Shown here: one piece after another, positions 1-22,683 of the stretch
How positions within the stretch are numbered: position 1 is the first letter of the stretch
How the letters are laid out: every line of letters starts with the position of its first letter
Origin: a virus
Lineage: Duplodnaviria > Caudoviricetes
Virus record (IMG/VR): IMGVR_UViG_3300010376_000107
Location: 1-27,973 of that record
DNA: 27,973 bases
Reading direction: 5' to 3' (one strand)
Program-made: the position numbers and the translations under genes
Notes under the pieces: generated by a model
The model's database searches: none
What the model was told of the DNA's origin: nothing
What the model saw: only the letters and a program-made list of their open reading frames with translations

Positions 1-55
1 CGCCCGCGAAGGCGGCGAGGCCGGCGAGCGCGAGCAGGATCCGACGAGCGATCAC
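1..55 (-). CDS. 5' end of a gene running off the window, encoding a probable signal peptide (MIARRILLALAGLAAFAG...)
   Basis: GTG at 55-53 overlaps the TGA of the upstream gene (an in-frame ATG at 58 is an alternative start). Basic n-region followed by a hydrophobic h-region. Confidence 0.6.
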   Translation of the reverse strand, partial: MIARRILLALAGLAAFAG

Positions 56-366
56 CATTTCACCCCCGAAAACTTGTGGCCGGACGAGGTCGCGTTGACG
101 CTCGTGGCGGTGGTCTGCCCGACGATCGCGGTCCAGGTCTGCCCCGCCTCGAGGCGGAACGTCGAGCCGTTCCCGGCGAGCGTCGCCGGGTTGCCCGTCG
201 GGTCGACGTAGAGCGGCTCGGTGTTGGCGAGCCCCTGGTCGGCCGGCGCCACTGGGTTCTGGATGAAACCGCCGCCGATCCCGCCGGGGGTCGCGACGAT
301 CGCGTTGACGGGCGAGCCGCCCACCGCGACCGCCGTGGCGTCGGCCGGGACCGGAGTGACGGCCAT
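52..366 (-). CDS. 104-aa putative virion protein, paralogous to the N-terminal domain of 2616..3689
   Basis: ORF track. Shares DQG..EPLYVD..G..GQ..GQTT..SVNA..SGHxFS with that domain. Confidence 0.85.
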   Translation of the reverse strand: MAVTPVPADATAVAVGGSPVNAIVATPGGIGGGFIQNPVAPADQGLANTEPLYVDPTGNPATLAGNGSTFRLEAGQTWTAIVGQTTATSVNATSSGHKFSGVKW

Positions 367-367
367 C

Positions 368-1756
368 TCACGCCGCCTTTCTGGCGAAGCCGAGCGGAAA
401 ATTGTCGTTCGCGCCCATGATCTCGCGCCAGAACGCGCAACCGTTGGACGTGACGCTGGTCAGCGTACCGCCGTCTGGCCAGGTGCTGTTCCCCAGGGAA
501 GAACCCTTGACGGTGTAAGTCGGCGTGGCGGTGCCGGGGAAGTCGATCCACTGGGAAATCGCCGCCGGCACCCGCGGCGCCGCCGTCGCGGCGCTATCGT
601 TGATCGAGCGAGCGACCGGCCCGACCTGAGTCGTCCCGCGGAACATGGCGATCTGGGCGGTTTGACCGACGCCGCCCATGGCGATGCTTCCGCTCGCGGA
701 GAACTCAATCGCGTTCGCCGCGGAAGAAAGCGTCGGGGAGGTCGTCACCGGGGTCGAGGTATAGCTCCCGCTCGCGAGAGTGGTCGGCGACGTCGTGCAG
801 ACCTGGATAGCGGGCCCGACTTGAGTGCCAGGGCGCGCGACGCCGGGGCCGAAAAGTTGTACGAAATTCGGCGTCGTCCAATTTCCGGCGGTCGTCAGCG
901 TCGTGTACTCGACGTAACCGATATAACGAACGGCGACCCCAGACAGCGACGAGGCGTTGCAGAAGATCGACTGCGTGGCCGACCCGCCGCCCGTGCCGGC
1001 CCCGCTCGACTGAAGCGTTCCTTCGTTGACCGCGAGGATGGGGGTGCTCCCCGAGGCGGACGCGGCGTTGTAGGCGCACACCTGAACCGTGCCGGCGTTG
1101 TCCGCGGCGAGGAGCCACAGCCGGCACGGGCTTGCGGAGACGCAACCCATCGTGTTGCCGCCGCTGATCGTGAACGAGGCCGCCGAGGTGACCGTGCGCC
1201 AGACGACACCGCCGTTCGCGGAGGTCGCGTTGCGAAACGGCACGTAGATCGGGGAGAGCGCGCTCGGGTTTCCGCCGGTCTGCCCGGAGAGCATCGAGCA
1301 GGTCAGCGCGTTCGAGACGGCGGTGCAGGACAGCGAGAGGTTGATCGGCGACGAGAAACCGTTCTGCGCCTGGACCGTCCCCAGGTTGAGGTTCGGCCCG
1401 GTCAGCTCGAACACCGTGCCGTCGAACGTGAACTCGTTGATCTGACCGGTGACGATCTCGCCGCCCGAGAGCGCCGCGAGGCCGGCCGTCGTCGGCTTGC
1501 TTACCGTCGTCGCGACGAGGCTGTTCACCTGCAGGGTGACGGGGCCGCTCGCGTTGGTCGACGACATGAGCACGCGCAGCGGCACGCCCTTCAGGTCCGC
1601 GAGCTGGCTCACGTTCGGCACGATGACCTGGATCGCGGTCCCCGACCCGGTGGAGGAGGCCACGTAGGTTTGCGGCGCGTCGAACTGCGCCGCGGCCGGG
1701 ACGACCGCGGCGAGGAGGACGGCGAGGAGGGCGAGGGCGCGGGTGATCCTGGTCAC
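368..1756 (-). CDS. Tail fibre / receptor-binding-like protein with N-terminal signal peptide (462 aa)
   Basis: Start re-called to GTG at 1756, which overlaps the upstream stop (GTGA). Begins MTRITRALALLAVLLAAVVPAAA|QFD. S/T/G-rich beta sequence with a fibre-type segment (TNASGPVTLQVNSL...LSGGEIVTGQINEFTFDGTVFEL). Lies in the fibre position of the module. Confidence 0.8.
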   Translation of the reverse strand: MTRITRALALLAVLLAAVVPAAAQFDAPQTYVASSTGSGTAIQVIVPNVSQLADLKGVPLRVLMSSTNASGPVTLQVNSLVATTVSKPTTAGLAALSGGEIVTGQINEFTFDGTVFELTGPNLNLGTVQAQNGFSSPINLSLSCTAVSNALTCSMLSGQTGGNPSALSPIYVPFRNATSANGGVVWRTVTSAASFTISGGNTMGCVSASPCRLWLLAADNAGTVQVCAYNAASASGSTPILAVNEGTLQSSGAGTGGGSATQSIFCNASSLSGVAVRYIGYVEYTTLTTAGNWTTPNFVQLFGPGVARPGTQVGPAIQVCTTSPTTLASGSYTSTPVTTSPTLSSAANAIEFSASGSIAMGGVGQTAQIAMFRGTTQVGPVARSINDSAATAAPRVPAAISQWIDFPGTATPTYTVKGSSLGNSTWPDGGTLTSVTSNGCAFWREIMGANDNFPLGFARKAA

Positions 1757-2385
1757 TGCTTGAAGCTCCACGTGTTGGCGGCCGCGACCCATTGCAGGAT
1801 CGCGACCTGACCGTTGACGCTCAGGGTGGCGTTGCCGGGCAGGCCGGCGATGCTCTGTCCCGCGTTCGGGACGACCGTGATCGGGAACTGCTGGAAGTTG
1901 CGCGCGCCGTCCGAGAGCGTGACGACCTGGCCGTTCGCGGGCCCCGGGGGCAACGTCACCTGCGTGGCGGCAGGCGCCACGGTGCGGACGAACATCACGG
2001 CGCCGTCGCTGTTGCTCAGGATGATCGGCGTCGAGGTCGTGACCTGACGAGCCGGGAAAGCCTGCCCCTGCTGGAGGAACGACGACGAGGTGCCGGCGGT
2101 CATCTGGTGGGCGAAGATGTCGCCCGCGAGGTAGCTCTGGGCGGTCGTCCCCTCCTGGCCGCGGACCATGGTGGTCACGTTGTCGCCCGAGATGGCGGTG
2201 ACGAGCACGATCTCCTTGATGAGCCCCGTCGCGGCGTCGATCAGGGTCGCGAGGAACCCCTGGCCCGGGATCGGGTTCGGGAATTTCACCCCCGTGCCGG
2301 CGGCGAGCGCGCAGTTCGTCTGGGTCGAGTTGATCGCGCCGGCGAGCGTCGACGAGGCGTCGTTCGTGAACAGGAGGATCGTCAT
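1753..2385 (-). CDS. Proximal tail fibre / baseplate-anchoring protein (210 aa)
   Basis: N-terminal LFTNDASSTLAGAI...EIVLVTAISGD..TMVRGQEGTTA is typical of fibre N-termini. C-terminal VTLPPGPANGQVVTLSD...PITVVPN..QSI resembles a fibre repeat. Follows the baseplate wedge genes. Confidence 0.8.
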   Translation of the reverse strand: MTILLFTNDASSTLAGAINSTQTNCALAAGTGVKFPNPIPGQGFLATLIDAATGLIKEIVLVTAISGDNVTTMVRGQEGTTAQSYLAGDIFAHQMTAGTSSSFLQQGQAFPARQVTTSTPIILSNSDGAVMFVRTVAPAATQVTLPPGPANGQVVTLSDGARNFQQFPITVVPNAGQSIAGLPGNATLSVNGQVAILQWVAAANTWSFKQ

Positions 2386-2615: not shown

Positions 2616-3689
2616 TTAGATCGTCACGACCACGTTCGAGAATTGGAACGGGAGCTGGAGCGCGCCCGACTGGAGAGCCTCCTGCAGGATCGCCGCGTTC
2701 GGCAGCGGGGTCAGCGCCTGCGTCGTGACCGCGGCCTGGTTGAACACGCGGCTGTTGAAGGTCCATGTGTCGTACACCATGCTCTTGCCGAGCTTGCCGA
2801 CCTTGTTGACCAGCGTGATGTTGACCTGGTTGGCGACCCCGAAGGTGATGCTCACCTGGTAGGTCTGGTCGACGTTCGGCGCGGCGCCGTTCGCCCCGTT
2901 GATGAAGCGCATGATTCGCCGCTTCAAAAACGCGATGTTGAACACGCGCCCGTCGCCCTTCCAGAAATTCCACGTGATGATGCGCTTGAAGATGTCGTCG
3001 GTCGTGACGGTCACGTTCTGCGCGCCGACCACCTTGTCGCCGTCGAAGGGGATCGAGTTGAAGGTCCACGTGTTGTAGGGGCCGACGTTGCGGTTGCGCC
3101 CGCTCGAGAGCGACGGCCGGACGATCCCGTACAAGCCCTGCGCGACCCAGTCGAGGAGCGGCCCGGAGATCGAGGCGTCGGTGTAGATCGGCAGGGGCGT
3201 GTCGTTGAGCCAGTCGAGGTATTCCTGCGCGATCTGATTGTAGCTCGCCACGAACGCCTGCAGGTCGTCGTCGTCCTGGTACTGCTGATAGAGGTACGAC
3301 GGGATGATTTCGAGGACGGTCGTCTGCTCGGCCGGCGGGAACGGCCCGGGCTGCGGCGTCGGCGGAAATTGCGTCGGCGGCTGCAGGACGATCGCGCTGA
3401 ACTGGTGGCCCGAGGTCCTCGCGTTGACGCTCACGTTCGTCGTCTGCCCCGCCGGCACGACGAACCACTGCCCGGGCTGGACCTCGTAGGTGGTCGCCGT
3501 CTCGGCGAGCGCCGCCGGCCCGACGAGGTCGACGTAGAGCGGCTCGACCGGGCTCACGCCCTGGTCGGCGACGTTCGACGGGTTGACGATCAGGCCGCCC
3601 GCGACGCCGCCGAAGATGGCGACGACGGGCGAGCCCCCGGTGGTCACCACCGTGACGGCCGCGCGGTACGGGACTATCGGCGCGGTCAT
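2616..3689 (-). CDS. Baseplate wedge protein (DUF2612/gpI-like) with an extra N-terminal domain
   Basis: Immediately downstream of baseplate J. Motifs YLYQQYQDDDDLQAFV, LLDWVAQGLYGIVRP and TDDIFKRIITWNFWKGDG. Confidence 0.8.
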   Translation of the reverse strand: MTAPIVPYRAAVTVVTTGGSPVVAIFGGVAGGLIVNPSNVADQGVSPVEPLYVDLVGPAALAETATTYEVQPGQWFVVPAGQTTNVSVNARTSGHQFSAIVLQPPTQFPPTPQPGPFPPAEQTTVLEIIPSYLYQQYQDDDDLQAFVASYNQIAQEYLDWLNDTPLPIYTDASISGPLLDWVAQGLYGIVRPSLSSGRNRNVGPYNTWTFNSIPFDGDKVVGAQNVTVTTDDIFKRIITWNFWKGDGRVFNIAFLKRRIMRFINGANGAAPNVDQTYQVSITFGVANQVNITLVNKVGKLGKSMVYDTWTFNSRVFNQAAVTTQALTPLPNAAILQEALQSGALQLPFQFSNVVVTI

Positions 3690-13899: not shown

Positions 13900-14958
13900 T
13901 TAGTCGACGGCGGCGAGCGGGCCGACGACGAACGTCGGGATGCAGGACGCGATGAGCTGCGTGCCCACCCGGCGCGAGGTCGACTGGTAGTAGCTGACCT
14001 CGATCTCGATCTCCTTGCGCTGCGCGAGCGTGAAGAACTCGACCTGCCCCTGCTTGGCGTCGCGCGGGATCGGCATGTTCATGAGGCCGATGTTGTCCGT
14101 CTCGAGGCTGTACTGGTCGACGGCCGCCATCAGGTTGAGCACGTCCGCGTTGCGCAGCCCGAACGTCGTGAGCTTGACGAGGTCGCGCGCGAGTTGGGTC
14201 TGGCCGAGGTTCGCGTCGAACAGCGGCGCCGCCTGCAGGGCGCGCGTCGCCTCGGGGGCGACGTGGACCACCACGTAGGGCGGCCGCTGGTTGTCGGGGA
14301 CCGCCATCGAGGGGAAGAACGGCGCCGTGACCGGGAAGAACCCCGTGGGCGACGCGTACCCCGGGATCTGCAGCCACATCGGCAGGCTGTTCGACACCAC
14401 GGGGCCGATCGCGTTGAACTGGAGGGGCGAGTCGACGATCTGCGTCGCCATGTTCGAGGTGATGCTCGCCCCGAGGTAGTGATACAGCGGGCCCGCCTGC
14501 TGATAGAGGTTCTTGCGCGCCGAGAAGGCGTAGCGCCGGTTGTGAGGCTCGCTCGCCGGCAGCTGCGCGATCCACATCGTCTGCGGGTCGATCGAGTTGA
14601 AGAAGTCGAGCGGGATCTCGGACGTGAACACCACGTCGTTCGCGGCCGCGTTCGCCTCCTCGCTCTGGTAGCGGCGCGTCGCGAAATGCAGCGACCCGGT
14701 CGCGACGATCGTGTCGGCCGCCACGACGGTCGGGCTCTTGTCGAACAGCCAGTCGTCGTAGGGGCCGGCCGCGTCGAAGATCGCGCCGCCGGTGACGAGG
14801 TCGGCCTTCACCCAGAACACGAACCCGTCGACCGGCAGGACCACGCGCCGGTACTGCGTGAACGTGACCTGCTGGTTGAGCGAGATCGCCTCGACGCCCG
14901 CGGCGAGGTCGGCGCCGAGCGGCGTCCTAGCGGCGGTCGCTTCGGCGGCGCTGGTCAC
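13900..14958 (-). CDS. Head-closure / tail-completion protein (352 aa)
   Basis: Start re-called to GTG 14958 (GTGA overlap). YRRVVLPVDGFVFWVK and VVSNSLPMWL..PDNQRPPYVVVHV motifs; position before the sheath. Confidence 0.7.
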   Translation of the reverse strand: MTSAAEATAARTPLGADLAAGVEAISLNQQVTFTQYRRVVLPVDGFVFWVKADLVTGGAIFDAAGPYDDWLFDKSPTVVAADTIVATGSLHFATRRYQSEEANAAANDVVFTSEIPLDFFNSIDPQTMWIAQLPASEPHNRRYAFSARKNLYQQAGPLYHYLGASITSNMATQIVDSPLQFNAIGPVVSNSLPMWLQIPGYASPTGFFPVTAPFFPSMAVPDNQRPPYVVVHVAPEATRALQAAPLFDANLGQTQLARDLVKLTTFGLRNADVLNLMAAVDQYSLETDNIGLMNMPIPRDAKQGQVEFFTLAQRKEIEIEVSYYQSTSRRVGTQLIASCIPTFVVGPLAAVD

Positions 14959-15638
14959 GGCGCCCCCGTGGCGAGCTGCGCGAGGCCGGCCCGGTCGTAC
15001 TCGGCCCACACCTGGCCGAGCCACGTGAAGACCTTGCCCCGCAGGGTGCGCGACTCGTGCTTGCCGGCGAACTCCGAGAACGTCCACGCGTCGCGGTCGA
15101 TGAGGCCCGCGGCCTTGTCGTCCAGGTGGGGGATCGTCACCGCGGAGAGCTGATCGAGCACGGAGCTGACCTGCGGGTCGTCGGCCCACTGCAGGTAGTC
15201 CGCCGTGCTCGACACGTAATTCTTGACCGGGAAATGGTGCGCCCGGCCGATCGACCGGACGACCTCGAAAATCTCGCCGAGCGACTGCTGCGTCGGTCCG
15301 AGCACGTGCAGCACCGCGAGATTGACGGCGCCGTTCTTCACGTCCTCGAGCAGGCGGACCTCGTCGAGCATCCGCAGGAGGGGCGAGAGCATTCCGGCCC
15401 GCACGTCGATCAGGATGTTGCCCTCGACCTTGTCGAACACCGCCATCTGCCCGTCGATGGTTTCCAGGTTGACGACCTGCGCGAGCGGGTGGAACCGCTT
15501 GAGCCCGCCCTTCGGGTGCTCGGTGTCGATGTCCTCGCGCACGACGCCCTTGCCTTCGAGGTACTCGCCCAACGTCCTCGCCACCGTGGTCTTGCCGGTG
15601 CCGCCCTTGTCGGCGCCGACGATGAAGATCGAACCCAT
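14955..15638 (-). CDS. ParA/MinD-like P-loop ATPase (227 aa; alternative GTG start at 15713)
   Basis: Deviant Walker A DKGGTGKTT, DIDTE (Walker A') and ILIDVRAG (Walker B). GGGAGG RBS precedes both candidate starts. Confidence 0.85.
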   Translation of the reverse strand: MGSIFIVGADKGGTGKTTVARTLGEYLEGKGVVREDIDTEHPKGGLKRFHPLAQVVNLETIDGQMAVFDKVEGNILIDVRAGMLSPLLRMLDEVRLLEDVKNGAVNLAVLHVLGPTQQSLGEIFEVVRSIGRAHHFPVKNYVSSTADYLQWADDPQVSSVLDQLSAVTIPHLDDKAAGLIDRDAWTFSEFAGKHESRTLRGKVFTWLGQVWAEYDRAGLAQLATGAP

Positions 15639-15723
15639 GAGGTGCCTCCCGTACTGCCTGCCTCTCGGCGTGAAACCCGGCCCGGGCGACGATTGCCGCC
15701 AGACGTGGTCCACCCGAACCTCC

Positions 15724-16461: not shown

Positions 16462-16830
16462 TCACTTCGACGGGCACACCGACAGCTGCGTGATGCGCAG
16501 CGTCCCGGTCGCGGTGCCCGCGAGGGCGGCGACCCAGGTGTTCGGCCCGATGTTCAGGCACACCCCGTTCGCCGGCAGAGCGGGGCTCGTGTTCGTCGCC
16601 GTCACAGTGTTGTCGACGCCGAACTTGTAGAAAATCTCGTTCGTCGAGGCGCCGACGCCGTACTGGAGCATGACGAACGGGTAGGACGACGGCGCGCCGG
16701 TGAGCTGCACGTTCGCGCTCGTCGTGGTCGCCGAGATCGAGAAATTCCCGCCGATCGCCTGGGCCTCGGCCGGGGCGGCGAGCGCGGCCGCCGCCAGGGC
16801 GGCGAGCGCGAGGGAACGCAGAAACCTCAT
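16462..16830 (-). CDS. Signal-peptide-bearing beta-rich protein (122 aa)
   Basis: Start re-called to ATG 16830 with GAGGAGAGG RBS. Begins MRFLRSLALAALAAAALAAPAEA|QAIG; two Cys in the mature part. Confidence 0.82.
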   Translation of the reverse strand: MRFLRSLALAALAAAALAAPAEAQAIGGNFSISATTTSANVQLTGAPSSYPFVMLQYGVGASTNEIFYKFGVDNTVTATNTSPALPANGVCLNIGPNTWVAALAGTATGTLRITQLSVCPSK

Positions 16831-20673: not shown

Positions 20674-21624
20674 TCAGGCGTCCTGGCGCGTGACGATGCG
20701 CCCGACCTTCCGCGCCGGCCGGCTGAGGCCGGCGATGAACGTGTTCTTGCCGAAGAACATGGTCACGCGCCCCCCGGTGGCGGGGTTGACGCGGTGGACC
20801 TCGCGCATCTGACCCGGCTGCAGGTCGGTCGGCGCGTTCGCCGCCGTCACCGAGTCGGCGTAGATCTGCCGCTCGGCGATCGTGAAGGCGGCGCCGTCCG
20901 CGGCGACCACGCCGAGGTTGACGTCCTTCCACGCCGGGCTGTGCGTCTTGAGCTTGTTCGCGACGCGCAGGCGGTAGGCGGCGAGGCTCTCGCCGACGAG
21001 GGGGCGCGGGGCCCGCTCGCCGAAGGCGCACATCACGTCGTCGGCGCGCGACTGAGCGTCGGCGAGGTCGTGGTAGTCCTTGTCGGAGAGCTGCATGGGC
21101 ACCAGGCGCTCGACCCGGGCGAGGCGGCCGAGGACGTCGGCGCCGGCCGAATCTTTCTTGGCGTCTTCTTTGCCTTCGTCGTCGTCGTCGCGCTTGCGGC
21201 CGTCGCCGCGCGCGGGTTCCTTCTTGTCAGGTTCCTCGGCGTCGCGGCGCTTGGCGTCTTTTTTGTCGGCTGCCTTCTCGTCGTCGCCGTCCTCGTCGTC
21301 GTCTTTCTTGCGGGAGGCGTCGTCTCGCGCCTTGTCGTCGCGGGCCTTGTCGTCCCGGTGCTTGTCGTCGCGCTTCGCGGCGTCGTCGCGAGCCTTGTCC
21401 TTCGCCTCCATGGCGTCCATGCGATCGTGCAGGTTTTTCATGGAGTCCTTGACCGACCCGAGCCCGGCGAGGATCGTGTCGAGCTTGTCGCCCGCGTCGG
21501 CGTCGGCCTTCTTGTCGGCCTTGTCCCCGCCCTCGTCTTCGCCTTTCTTCGGGGGAAACTCGTCTTTGCGCTTCGCCGCGTCCTCGCGCTTCTCGTCCGC
21601 GTCGGCTCGCACTGCATCGGCCAT
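20674..21624 (-). CDS. Nested in-frame scaffold protein from an internal start (316 aa)
   Basis: GCGGGAGACTTAGCC-ATG at 21624 is in frame, and A/T-ending codons increase locally around this start. Confidence 0.6.
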   Translation of the reverse strand: MADAVRADADEKREDAAKRKDEFPPKKGEDEGGDKADKKADADAGDKLDTILAGLGSVKDSMKNLHDRMDAMEAKDKARDDAAKRDDKHRDDKARDDKARDDASRKKDDDEDGDDEKAADKKDAKRRDAEEPDKKEPARGDGRKRDDDDEGKEDAKKDSAGADVLGRLARVERLVPMQLSDKDYHDLADAQSRADDVMCAFGERAPRPLVGESLAAYRLRVANKLKTHSPAWKDVNLGVVAADGAAFTIAERQIYADSVTAANAPTDLQPGQMREVHRVNPATGGRVTMFFGKNTFIAGLSRPARKVGRIVTRQDA

Positions 21625-22683
21625 GGCTAAGTCTCCCGCTGCCTCTGTCCGCACCCCAGAGGGTGCTTTGCCCTTGTCCCAGACGCCGACCTCGCAGACC
21701 GCGAGGTGATCCAGGAGCGATGGTTTGCCCTCGATCAACAGGGTGGAGCCGTCCTCGAGCTTCACCTGGTCGTTCACGCTCGGATCGCGGAACACGACCG
21801 CCGGGGAGGTCGACAGCTGCTCGGTCTCCATCAGGCGACCAGCCGCCTCGTCGTAAATCTTGGCGACCCCCCAGACCTCGTCGCCCTTGATGTAGGGCAA
21901 CAGGATCGTGCCGATGACCCGATCGGCGAACTCTTTCGAGTTGAGCGTAGCACGAGTCGGGTGCTCCCACACAACGGGTAGCCCGTTGCACCGCGCGAGA
22001 AACTCGGGGTTGAGGTAGTGCTCGGGCCGCCGGTAGGCGTACTCGTCGAGCTTCTTGCGGTAGGCCGTGCCGGTCCCGGTCACGCGCAGGTCGAACAGCC
22101 ACAGCGTCTCGTAGCGCTGCGGCGAGGCGAGCTCCCCCGCGGCGATCAGGCGCGCGACACCCAGCTCGTCGAGCGCGAGGCGCGCGAGCGCGACGCGGCA
22201 GCCGGGGTGCAGAGGCTCGGGCGGCTGGTCGGGCGGCGCCCACGCGTAGCCCACGTGCTCGTCGTTCACCTCGGGGTCGAACGGTTTCATGCCGCGCGCC
22301 GCGAACGTGGTGAAGTCGACGGGCTCGACCTCCGGGGCCTGCGCGGGGGCGGTCGGCGGCGCCACAGGGGCGGCTGCTGGATTGCCGTTCGCAGCCTCGA
22401 TCTGCGCCCTCGCCGTCGCCTCGACCGACGCAGGCGGGGCCGAGATCACCGCCCCCGGGGGATCGGCTTTCACGCGGCGCGTCCACGGCAGCAGGTCGCC
22501 CTTGAGCGCGACGCCCGTCTCTTCCTTGAACTCGCGCCGCGCCGCCTGCTCGGGCGTCTCGCCGTCCTCGACGCGCCCCCCGGGCAGGCACCACTCGCCC
22601 GGGTGGTCGGCCGTCGGCGCGCGCTTGAGGAACAGCACGCGGCCGTTGACCATGCAGAGGACGCCGGCGCCGCGGATCGTCAT
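20674..22683 (-). CDS. NUDIX hydrolase - DUF2213-type prohead protease - scaffold fusion (669 aa)
   Basis: Complete Nudix box GGRVEDGETPEQAARREFKEETGV. Protease-like region GLPVVWEHP..LSTSPAV..LLDHLAVC. D/K/R-rich C-terminal scaffold. Confidence 0.88.
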   Translation of the reverse strand: MTIRGAGVLCMVNGRVLFLKRAPTADHPGEWCLPGGRVEDGETPEQAARREFKEETGVALKGDLLPWTRRVKADPPGAVISAPPASVEATARAQIEAANGNPAAAPVAPPTAPAQAPEVEPVDFTTFAARGMKPFDPEVNDEHVGYAWAPPDQPPEPLHPGCRVALARLALDELGVARLIAAGELASPQRYETLWLFDLRVTGTGTAYRKKLDEYAYRRPEHYLNPEFLARCNGLPVVWEHPTRATLNSKEFADRVIGTILLPYIKGDEVWGVAKIYDEAAGRLMETEQLSTSPAVVFRDPSVNDQVKLEDGSTLLIEGKPSLLDHLAVCEVGVWDKGKAPSGVRTEAAGDLAMADAVRADADEKREDAAKRKDEFPPKKGEDEGGDKADKKADADAGDKLDTILAGLGSVKDSMKNLHDRMDAMEAKDKARDDAAKRDDKHRDDKARDDKARDDASRKKDDDEDGDDEKAADKKDAKRRDAEEPDKKEPARGDGRKRDDDDEGKEDAKKDSAGADVLGRLARVERLVPMQLSDKDYHDLADAQSRADDVMCAFGERAPRPLVGESLAAYRLRVANKLKTHSPAWKDVNLGVVAADGAAFTIAERQIYADSVTAANAPTDLQPGQMREVHRVNPATGGRVTMFFGKNTFIAGLSRPARKVGRIVTRQDA
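21170..21610 (-). repeat. Low-complexity K/R-x-D-[D/A] repeats in the scaffold (e.g. RDDKARDDKARDD)
   Basis: Imperfect 15-bp tandem units at about 21320-21400, within a wider D/K/R-rich tract. Confidence 0.8.

Follow-up and report, generated by a model that had tools for sequence, protein, structure and literature searches.

The 462-residue fibre-like protein described here carries an export signal at its N-terminus and closes with a short tail that resembles an ssrA tag. Our reading, drawn from sequence comparison and held with confidence about evenly divided, is that the phage genome itself would encode, on a fibre bearing an export signal, a copy of the tmRNA tag of Alphaproteobacteria, and that this tail would serve as an SspB-dependent ClpXP degron clearing cysteine-rich precursors stranded in the cytoplasm. 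The window, by which we mean the whole stretch of DNA that was analysed, comprises the 27,973 bases of one virus record and spans head and tail genes of a phage with a contractile tail, among them those for portal, capsid and head morphogenesis, for sheath, baseplate hub and wedge and for a lytic tail protein. The fibre-like gene occupies positions 368-1756 on the minus strand and begins with GTG.

The protein starts with a Sec-type signal peptide (residues 1-23; 1688..1756, minus strand) showing the n/h/c pattern of a basic start, a hydrophobic core and an AxA motif followed by Q, with cleavage predicted between A-A-A and Q. Signal peptides were called throughout by an in-house hydrophobicity score together with inspection by eye; A23 and Q24 are invariant among the 27 aligned members of alignment A2. 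Judging from the cleavable signal peptide pattern and the cysteine content of the family, the protein appears to be exported by the Sec pathway. It continues with an N-terminal fibre module (residues 31-123; 1388..1666, minus strand) whose match is 9b45_2, a chain in the complex of baseplate and tail fibre from Pseudomonas phage Pa193 (Z 8.5 over 88 residues, 25% identity), and with a middle beta domain containing conserved cysteines, which constitutes the family core (827..1354, minus strand; C205 and C211 invariant in the 27 members). The C-terminal knob, extending from about residue 315 to 447 (416..814, minus strand), is a TNF/C1q-like jelly roll by structure match, aligning with the PLTL lectin 9ib6 (Z 14.4, rmsd 2.2, 123 residues) and with the Pgp3 C-terminal domain (Z 13.6), and on the modelled fold it is likely to be trimeric and sugar-binding.

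The AlphaFold2 monomer model has a mean pLDDT of 79.7 and the whole chain gave only weak Foldseek matches to the PDB. Pfam and PHROG searches yielded no family match for the protein itself and no close family member was found among 50,697 cultured phage records; there is a weak match to the tropism protein of phage AH02 (E 3e-5). The predicted fibre modules, the trimeric-type knob and the position in the tail module place the protein among phage tail fibres of the receptor-binding type.

Upstream, and overlapping the start of the fibre gene, lies a gene for a 210-residue tail-fibre-type protein (1753..2385, minus strand; phrog_8469 tail fibre, E 6e-20) that lacks a signal peptide and is a candidate anchor. 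Downstream is a 104-residue protein (52..366, minus strand), a paralogue of the N-terminal 100 residues encoded by the baseplate-region gene 2616-3689 on the minus strand (49% identity, E 1e-24). Its homologues follow the exported fibre in many other loci and it is a possible adaptor, docking that fibre onto the baseplate. The fibre family occurs both in the sheath-bearing phage of the window and in a prophage of genome G003 (locus L551) whose tail genes are, by inspection, apparently non-contractile, and the module therefore moves between tail types. In the tail regions of related phages (loci L001-L115), 31 of 115 same-strand neighbouring ORFs, some exceeding 1,000 residues, score as signal-peptide proteins, and these signal-peptide-rich regions form an exported accessory module.

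Several other features of the window were recorded. A second signal-peptide protein of about 122 residues with two cysteines, lacking a tag tail, is encoded among the neck genes (16462-16830, minus strand), and a gene for a ParA/CbiA-like ATPase lies between the neck and tail genes (14955-15641, minus strand). A NUDIX hydrolase domain is fused ahead of a DUF2213 head-maturation/scaffold protein (20674-22683, minus strand). ARAGORN predicted a 66-base tRNA-Val at 3527-3592 on the plus strand, opposite a coding gene and with no Rfam match, which is probably spurious.

The tail itself comprises residues 449-462 and the stop codon (368..412, minus strand), the protein ending in frame as WREIMG-ANDNFPLGFARKAA-stop; it is predicted to be disordered and is conserved in the family. 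The first-pass annotation had placed it beyond a natural domain end at WREIMG, and the structural model bears this out, with its last strand at residues 439-446 and pLDDT below 50 over residues 449-462. Relatives give the same boundary: among 35 homologues besides the query, 11 stop at the last strand of the knob (E-I/V-M/Q-x), 20 continue into an ND[ND] tail, 2 carry a degenerate tail and 2 end otherwise. The ANDN head (401..412, minus strand) is identical to the start of Xanthobacteraceae tmRNA tags and is a putative SspB site. The terminal KAA (371..379, minus strand) is a putative ClpX end, and bases 373-379, within its codons, also resemble the ribosome-binding site of the next gene. From ANDN to the end there are 14 residues, against 12 in the host-type tag. 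In the 25 genes of the window (7194 residues) this tail contains the only AND[ND] word, with 0.18 expected anywhere; the composition-based chance of one falling 10-16 residues from a stop in any of the genes is about 0.004, dropping to 6.5e-5 if an Ala-Ala end is also required, all of these figures having been computed post hoc. The host-type head, the modelled free and unstructured C-terminal position and the tag-like spacing mark the tail, on present predictions, as ssrA-like. The Caulobacter and E. coli tags that had been quoted for comparison agree with the accessible text of PMC9393093 and PMC3064785, respectively.

Comparison with tmRNA tags of the relatives' host group upheld the suggested likeness, since the ANDN head is shared with all of 31 tmRNA loci and the spacing is close to that of the tag: 28 of these loci encode the 12-residue ANDNYAPVA[Q/L/V]AA and three a 14-residue ANDN...LAA. 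Tailed members of the fibre family were found in a Xanthobacteraceae MAG (L360), in an uncultured alphaproteobacterial MAG (L362) and in G003, which belongs to the same family as the first. In the three relatives' genomes with tailed members that were tested, SspB is encoded beside ssrA, and these SspB proteins are homologous to the solved alphaproteobacterial structures 2nys, 2qas and 2qaz. The tag form had been taken to indicate an alphaproteobacterial host, and such a host, for this phage a putative one, rests on the fibre family and the tag form; the nearest cultured capsids (up to 60%) belong to gammaproteobacterial phages of Pantoea, Klebsiella and Yersinia. A search of 301 genomes of the order of G001, run without a positive control, found no match to the window capsid. 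At L393, L394 and L395 there are alpha tmRNA matches of low score whose 14-residue tag is another one, and G004 has one low-scoring tmRNA-like match as a second such gene, perhaps on a mobile element.

The distribution of the tail was examined across the fibre family, using 39 loci added from viral contigs, 76 from metagenomes and 30 taken from 33 matching genomes among the 401 of the family of G001. The first set consisted of 136 distinct ends, from which 31 were excluded as 5-prime open, truncated, duplicate or, in five cases, found by the tail pattern; after a 90% filter 103 members remained. The tail is present in 37 of the 59 with a signal peptide and in none of the 44 without (18/29 against 0/43 when only loci are counted). 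A second set, from the best 150 of 30,450 profile matches (about 1,700 relatives fall below E 1e-30), contributed 139 new proteins, 26 of which were excluded as truncated or lacking the knob, and here the counts are 36/61 and 0/52. Merging the sets at below 90% identity gives 69 tailed proteins among 116 signal-peptide members and none among 94 signal-less members; in the protein sets, members with both features are favoured by a search profile containing signal peptide and tail. Seven of the 26 exclusions were tailed proteins judged to be N-terminally truncated, and if any of them is truly signal-less the zero count fails. The tail is missing from 47 of the 116 exported members (40%) and must therefore be dispensable.

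The consensus of the tails is A(LEP)AND[ND]-x4-8-(MVG/MAG/MTG/KAA). Among the 69, the head reads ANDN in 38 and ANDD in 16; the last two residues are VG in 41, AA in 8, TG in 6, AG in 5 and others in 9. In all, 55 end in Gly, mostly as MVG. The distance from ANDN to the end is 11-12 residues in 50 tails, 10-16 in 67 and 35 in two. Long tails, up to 35 residues past ANDD and still ending in RAV or KAA, occur at L012, L017, L019 and L022. Head and end are thus conserved at the host-tag spacing among proteins that are only 35-55% identical. In 16 tails the codons vary synonymously (Ala as GCG 7, GCC 3 and GCA 2; Asn as AAC 13 and AAT 3), which implies that selection acts on the peptide. The terminal AA, earlier proposed as the feature read by ClpX or Tsp, is present as KAA in the 462-residue protein and is exceptional in the family, and direct reading through AA is therefore not a family rule. 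The median number of core cysteines is 6 in members with a signal peptide against 2 in those without, and exported members have a mean of 6.1 cysteines when tailed and 4.6 when untailed, kinship being uncontrolled in both comparisons; the higher content of exported members fits oxidative folding outside the cytoplasm.

Kinship was taken into account with a FastTree of the core, leaving out the tail, on which at least 17 changes of the signal peptide and 30 of the tail are needed. Tests on independent pairs yielded 3.0-3.6 informative pairs, never opposite in direction and not significant. Pagel's dependent model is strongly favoured (LR 37.5, df 4), although this test overstates association for traits of rare origin. 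None of 662 accepted simulations of independent traits gave zero overlap. The harshest null, in which the tail is gained and then lost, gave zero overlap in 8.6% of runs with one gain, 4.5% with two and 2.2% with three. Within the family the link between tail and export is consequently real in counts and borderline in independent events (p 0.02-0.09). The conservation and co-occurrence with the signal peptide that the first-pass annotation had called for were found in the raw counts, but the co-occurrence is only borderline once kinship is allowed for.

This borderline result leaves some room for a permissive or lineage effect. ANDN mimics would then occur on many proteins of alphaproteobacterial phages, and the fibre tail would have arisen once or a few times in an exported clade and persisted because it is hidden there, with no quality control specific to export. 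We regard this as unlikely, though the gain-then-loss null and the tail-less exported members speak for it, as does the wide occurrence of PANDN and ANDN...KAA ends on cytoplasmic phage proteins. These ends are common on signal-peptide-less proteins across the viral contigs; only 2 of 27 complete ORFs ending in ANDN...KAA in the viral scan pass the in-house signal-peptide score, and a signal-less 523-residue protein at L466 ends in ANDNFPWGIFERKAA, nearly the fibre tail. Tag mimicry must accordingly be a general habit of such phages. Set against this, a useless hidden tail would hardly keep its head, its end and the host-tag spacing at such low identities while its codons change synonymously, and unrelated exported proteins of the same phages bear a like tail, their cytoplasmic proteins mostly not.

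The last point rests on several surveys. Among unrelated same-strand neighbours in 30 loci, such a tail occurs on 4 of 31 proteins with a signal peptide and on none of 84 without (p 0.005), or on 2/31 against 0/84 when only degron-like KAA ends are counted (p 0.07). Five whole phage records contain 11 AND[ND] matches. Five of these lie 11-13 residues from a stop, each of them on a protein with a signal peptide; four of the records had been chosen for a tailed family member, and four of the five matches are those members. One further match, 18 residues from a stop, is also on a signal-peptide protein, and no terminal AND[ND] tag was found on a clear cytoplasmic gene in the five records. The 60 kb around the G003 member hold a single such motif in an ORF, on the fibre. 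What is particular to this phage group is the placing of the tag mimic on exported proteins. The earlier argument from signal peptide plus tag mimic to compartment-specific quality control accordingly holds in part: within the family the tail is confined to signal-peptide members, but ANDN...KAA is present on many signal-less phage proteins.

A scan for ND[ND]...M[V/A]G-stop gave 22 distinct in-frame ends from 120 matches, and as 9 of them come from the fibre family, the MVG form is largely its own. The tail pattern matched six times in genome contigs, twice in true members and four times out of register in HipA-like genes of Bacteroidota. Large proteins at L004 (7664 on), L061 (423 on), L484, L461, L544 and L546 share an end-piece of about LLxRDLDP-A/S-NDN-x-P-x-x-x-EKAA, and signal peptides are present in those of L004 and L061, where the N-terminus is whole.

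In the proposed degron mechanism, the fibre would be exported by Sec and would fold with disulfides in the periplasm. SspB would bind the ANDN head and ClpX would grip the end, either the KAA of the 462-residue protein or the weaker MVG of most relatives, which would need the adaptor. The tail would then be a complete degron, strong with KAA and adaptor-dependent with MVG. SspB and ClpXP being cytoplasmic, its action would be limited to precursor yet to cross the membrane; export would hide it from ClpXP, so that only stranded, reduced precursors would be destroyed, before they aggregate or occupy positions meant for sound fibres on cytoplasmically built tail parts. Reduced precursors of cysteine-rich fibres would be useless or would block anchor sites, and herein would lie the benefit of a rule of export or destruction. 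For fibres assembled in the cytoplasm the tag would be too costly, and signal-less members would lack it for that reason.

Published work bears on the steps of this scheme in both directions. ClpX reads the last three residues of the tag and SspB the head, and a weaker ClpX end makes degradation dependent on SspB (PMC3064785, text in part). In the portion of PMC9393093 consulted, deletion of sspB in Caulobacter slows the breakdown of an ssrA-tagged protein, and the excerpt of PMC8119881 gives AA as the classical end. A Gly-ended ClpX degron is known in Caulobacter PdeA, which ends in ARG (PMC8138137, partial text), while in an E. coli screen each of the five terminal positions was depleted of Gly, and 39% of the tags ending in AA were weak (PMC10862746, partial text). 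Failed Sec substrates are cleared mostly by Lon and FtsH, as far as the available part of PMC8076867 indicates. The Gly-ended tails, the tail-less exported members and the role of Lon and FtsH as the known cleaners count against the degron reading.

More broadly, and more tentatively, with belief falling short of an even balance, we suggest an "export or die" switch, by which soil phages of Xanthobacteraceae-like hosts would build part of their host-recognition fibres periplasmically and, by means of an SspB-dependent tag that is portable (ANDN-x-MVG/KAA), would turn the host's ribosome-rescue disposal system on every precursor that misses export.

The tail would also remain on the protein after maturation and occurs on exported members only, as would be expected if it were instead a periplasmic signal, by which a PDZ protease such as Prc/Tsp trims it or degrades the exported protein. 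Tsp does act on ssrA-tagged periplasmic proteins. It disfavours Gly ends, in which most of the tails terminate, and the best-conserved part of the tail is the ANDN head, matching the site of cytoplasmic SspB; a periplasmic role is quite improbable.

We see only a slight chance that the tail is an SspB tether that leads to no degradation, ANDN holding the precursor export-competent via SspB or SspB plus ClpX, or soaking up SspB, with the Gly end chosen as a poor degron. To our knowledge no holdase role has been described for SspB. The fixed spacing of 11-12 residues and the apolar x-V/A-G/A end fit a complete degron, and AA is retained in eight members including the 462-residue protein, even though the head is conserved while the end drifts from AA to VG, TG or AG and Gly ends are poor degrons in E. 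coli (PMC10862746, in the part available).

Little probability, too, attaches to the tail being no protease signal at all, serving instead to dock onto a partner protein of the phage or owing its sequence to the ribosome-binding site that the following gene needs. That gene often starts no more than 6 bases away, and the final codons are Shine-Dalgarno-like, in the 462-residue gene as well. Yet codon choice at the final four positions shows no bias toward anti-SD pairing (mean quantile 0.48 across 15 loci, the start being doubtful in three) and lends no support to Shine-Dalgarno shaping of the end, and of seven loci with the next ATG more than 6 bases off, five keep VG. The tail precedes at least three types of downstream gene and is absent before the same 104-residue type in L001 and L050, and partner-specific docking is dismissed because tail presence does not track the type of downstream gene; neither version explains ANDN. 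A fragment of a tmRNA gene or attachment-site relic was discarded, since ARAGORN and Rfam detected no tmRNA in the window and the DNA is unlike the host tag beyond the head. So was programmed readthrough or recent tail loss, as no ND[ND] relic follows the stop in any frame, either in 11 exported loci that lack a tail or in 43 loci without a signal peptide.

Should the degron reading prove true, it would provide natural alphaproteobacterial SspB substrates besides tmRNA-tagged proteins and a phage that couples Sec export to host proteolysis, and it would strengthen the unusual proposition that certain virion fibres complete their maturation outside the cytoplasm. For work in Rhizobiales, an MVG end with natural dependence on the adaptor would also serve as a ready-made tunable degron. 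Phage proteins with encoded ClpX degrons are already known, as is one natural SspB substrate, RseA; new here are the difference that separates exported from non-exported fibres throughout the family, the spacing shared with the host tag, the MVG end and the association with cysteine content. Encoded ANDN tags, tagged exported phage fibres or a compartment-gated degron in bacteria or phages were not found in the literature searched, made up mainly of open-access papers.

Among known systems, the eukaryotic degron pathways that clear mislocalised secretory proteins share the principle of a degron hidden by correct targeting, in the sections available of PMC8013793 and PMC11178506; they use ubiquitin ligases, and the likeness is by analogy only. 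The C-terminus of MuA and the N-terminus of lambda O are, like the proposed fibre degron, phage-encoded and use host ClpXP (PMC8138137, in part). Unlike the fibre, MuA and lambda O are cytoplasmic DNA-handling proteins with neither an ssrA-head mimic nor an export signal. E. coli RseA(1-108) resembles the fibre in being genome-encoded and envelope-linked and is a natural SspB-delivered ClpXP substrate, but its degron is exposed by cleavage, carries no copy of the ANDN head in the available description, and is regulatory (PMC8138137, partial text). In the engineered DAS+4 tag an SspB head is combined with a weakened ClpX end to produce adaptor dependence (PMC3064785, text in part), and ANDN...MVG looks like a natural version of it, although DAS+4 is artificial and the adaptor dependence of MVG putative. 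With the alphaproteobacterial tmRNA tag, read by SspB and ClpXP, the fibre tail has in common the ANDN head, an unstructured C-terminal stretch of 11-14 residues and a small apolar end, AA in the present protein. It differs in being gene-encoded and not added by trans-translation, in its place on an exported protein, in the MVG end of most relatives and in its middle residues, and at most 8 of 24 bases are alike in the DNA after the head. By its sequence, then, the fibre tail is not a true tmRNA tag but is tag-like in its anatomy.
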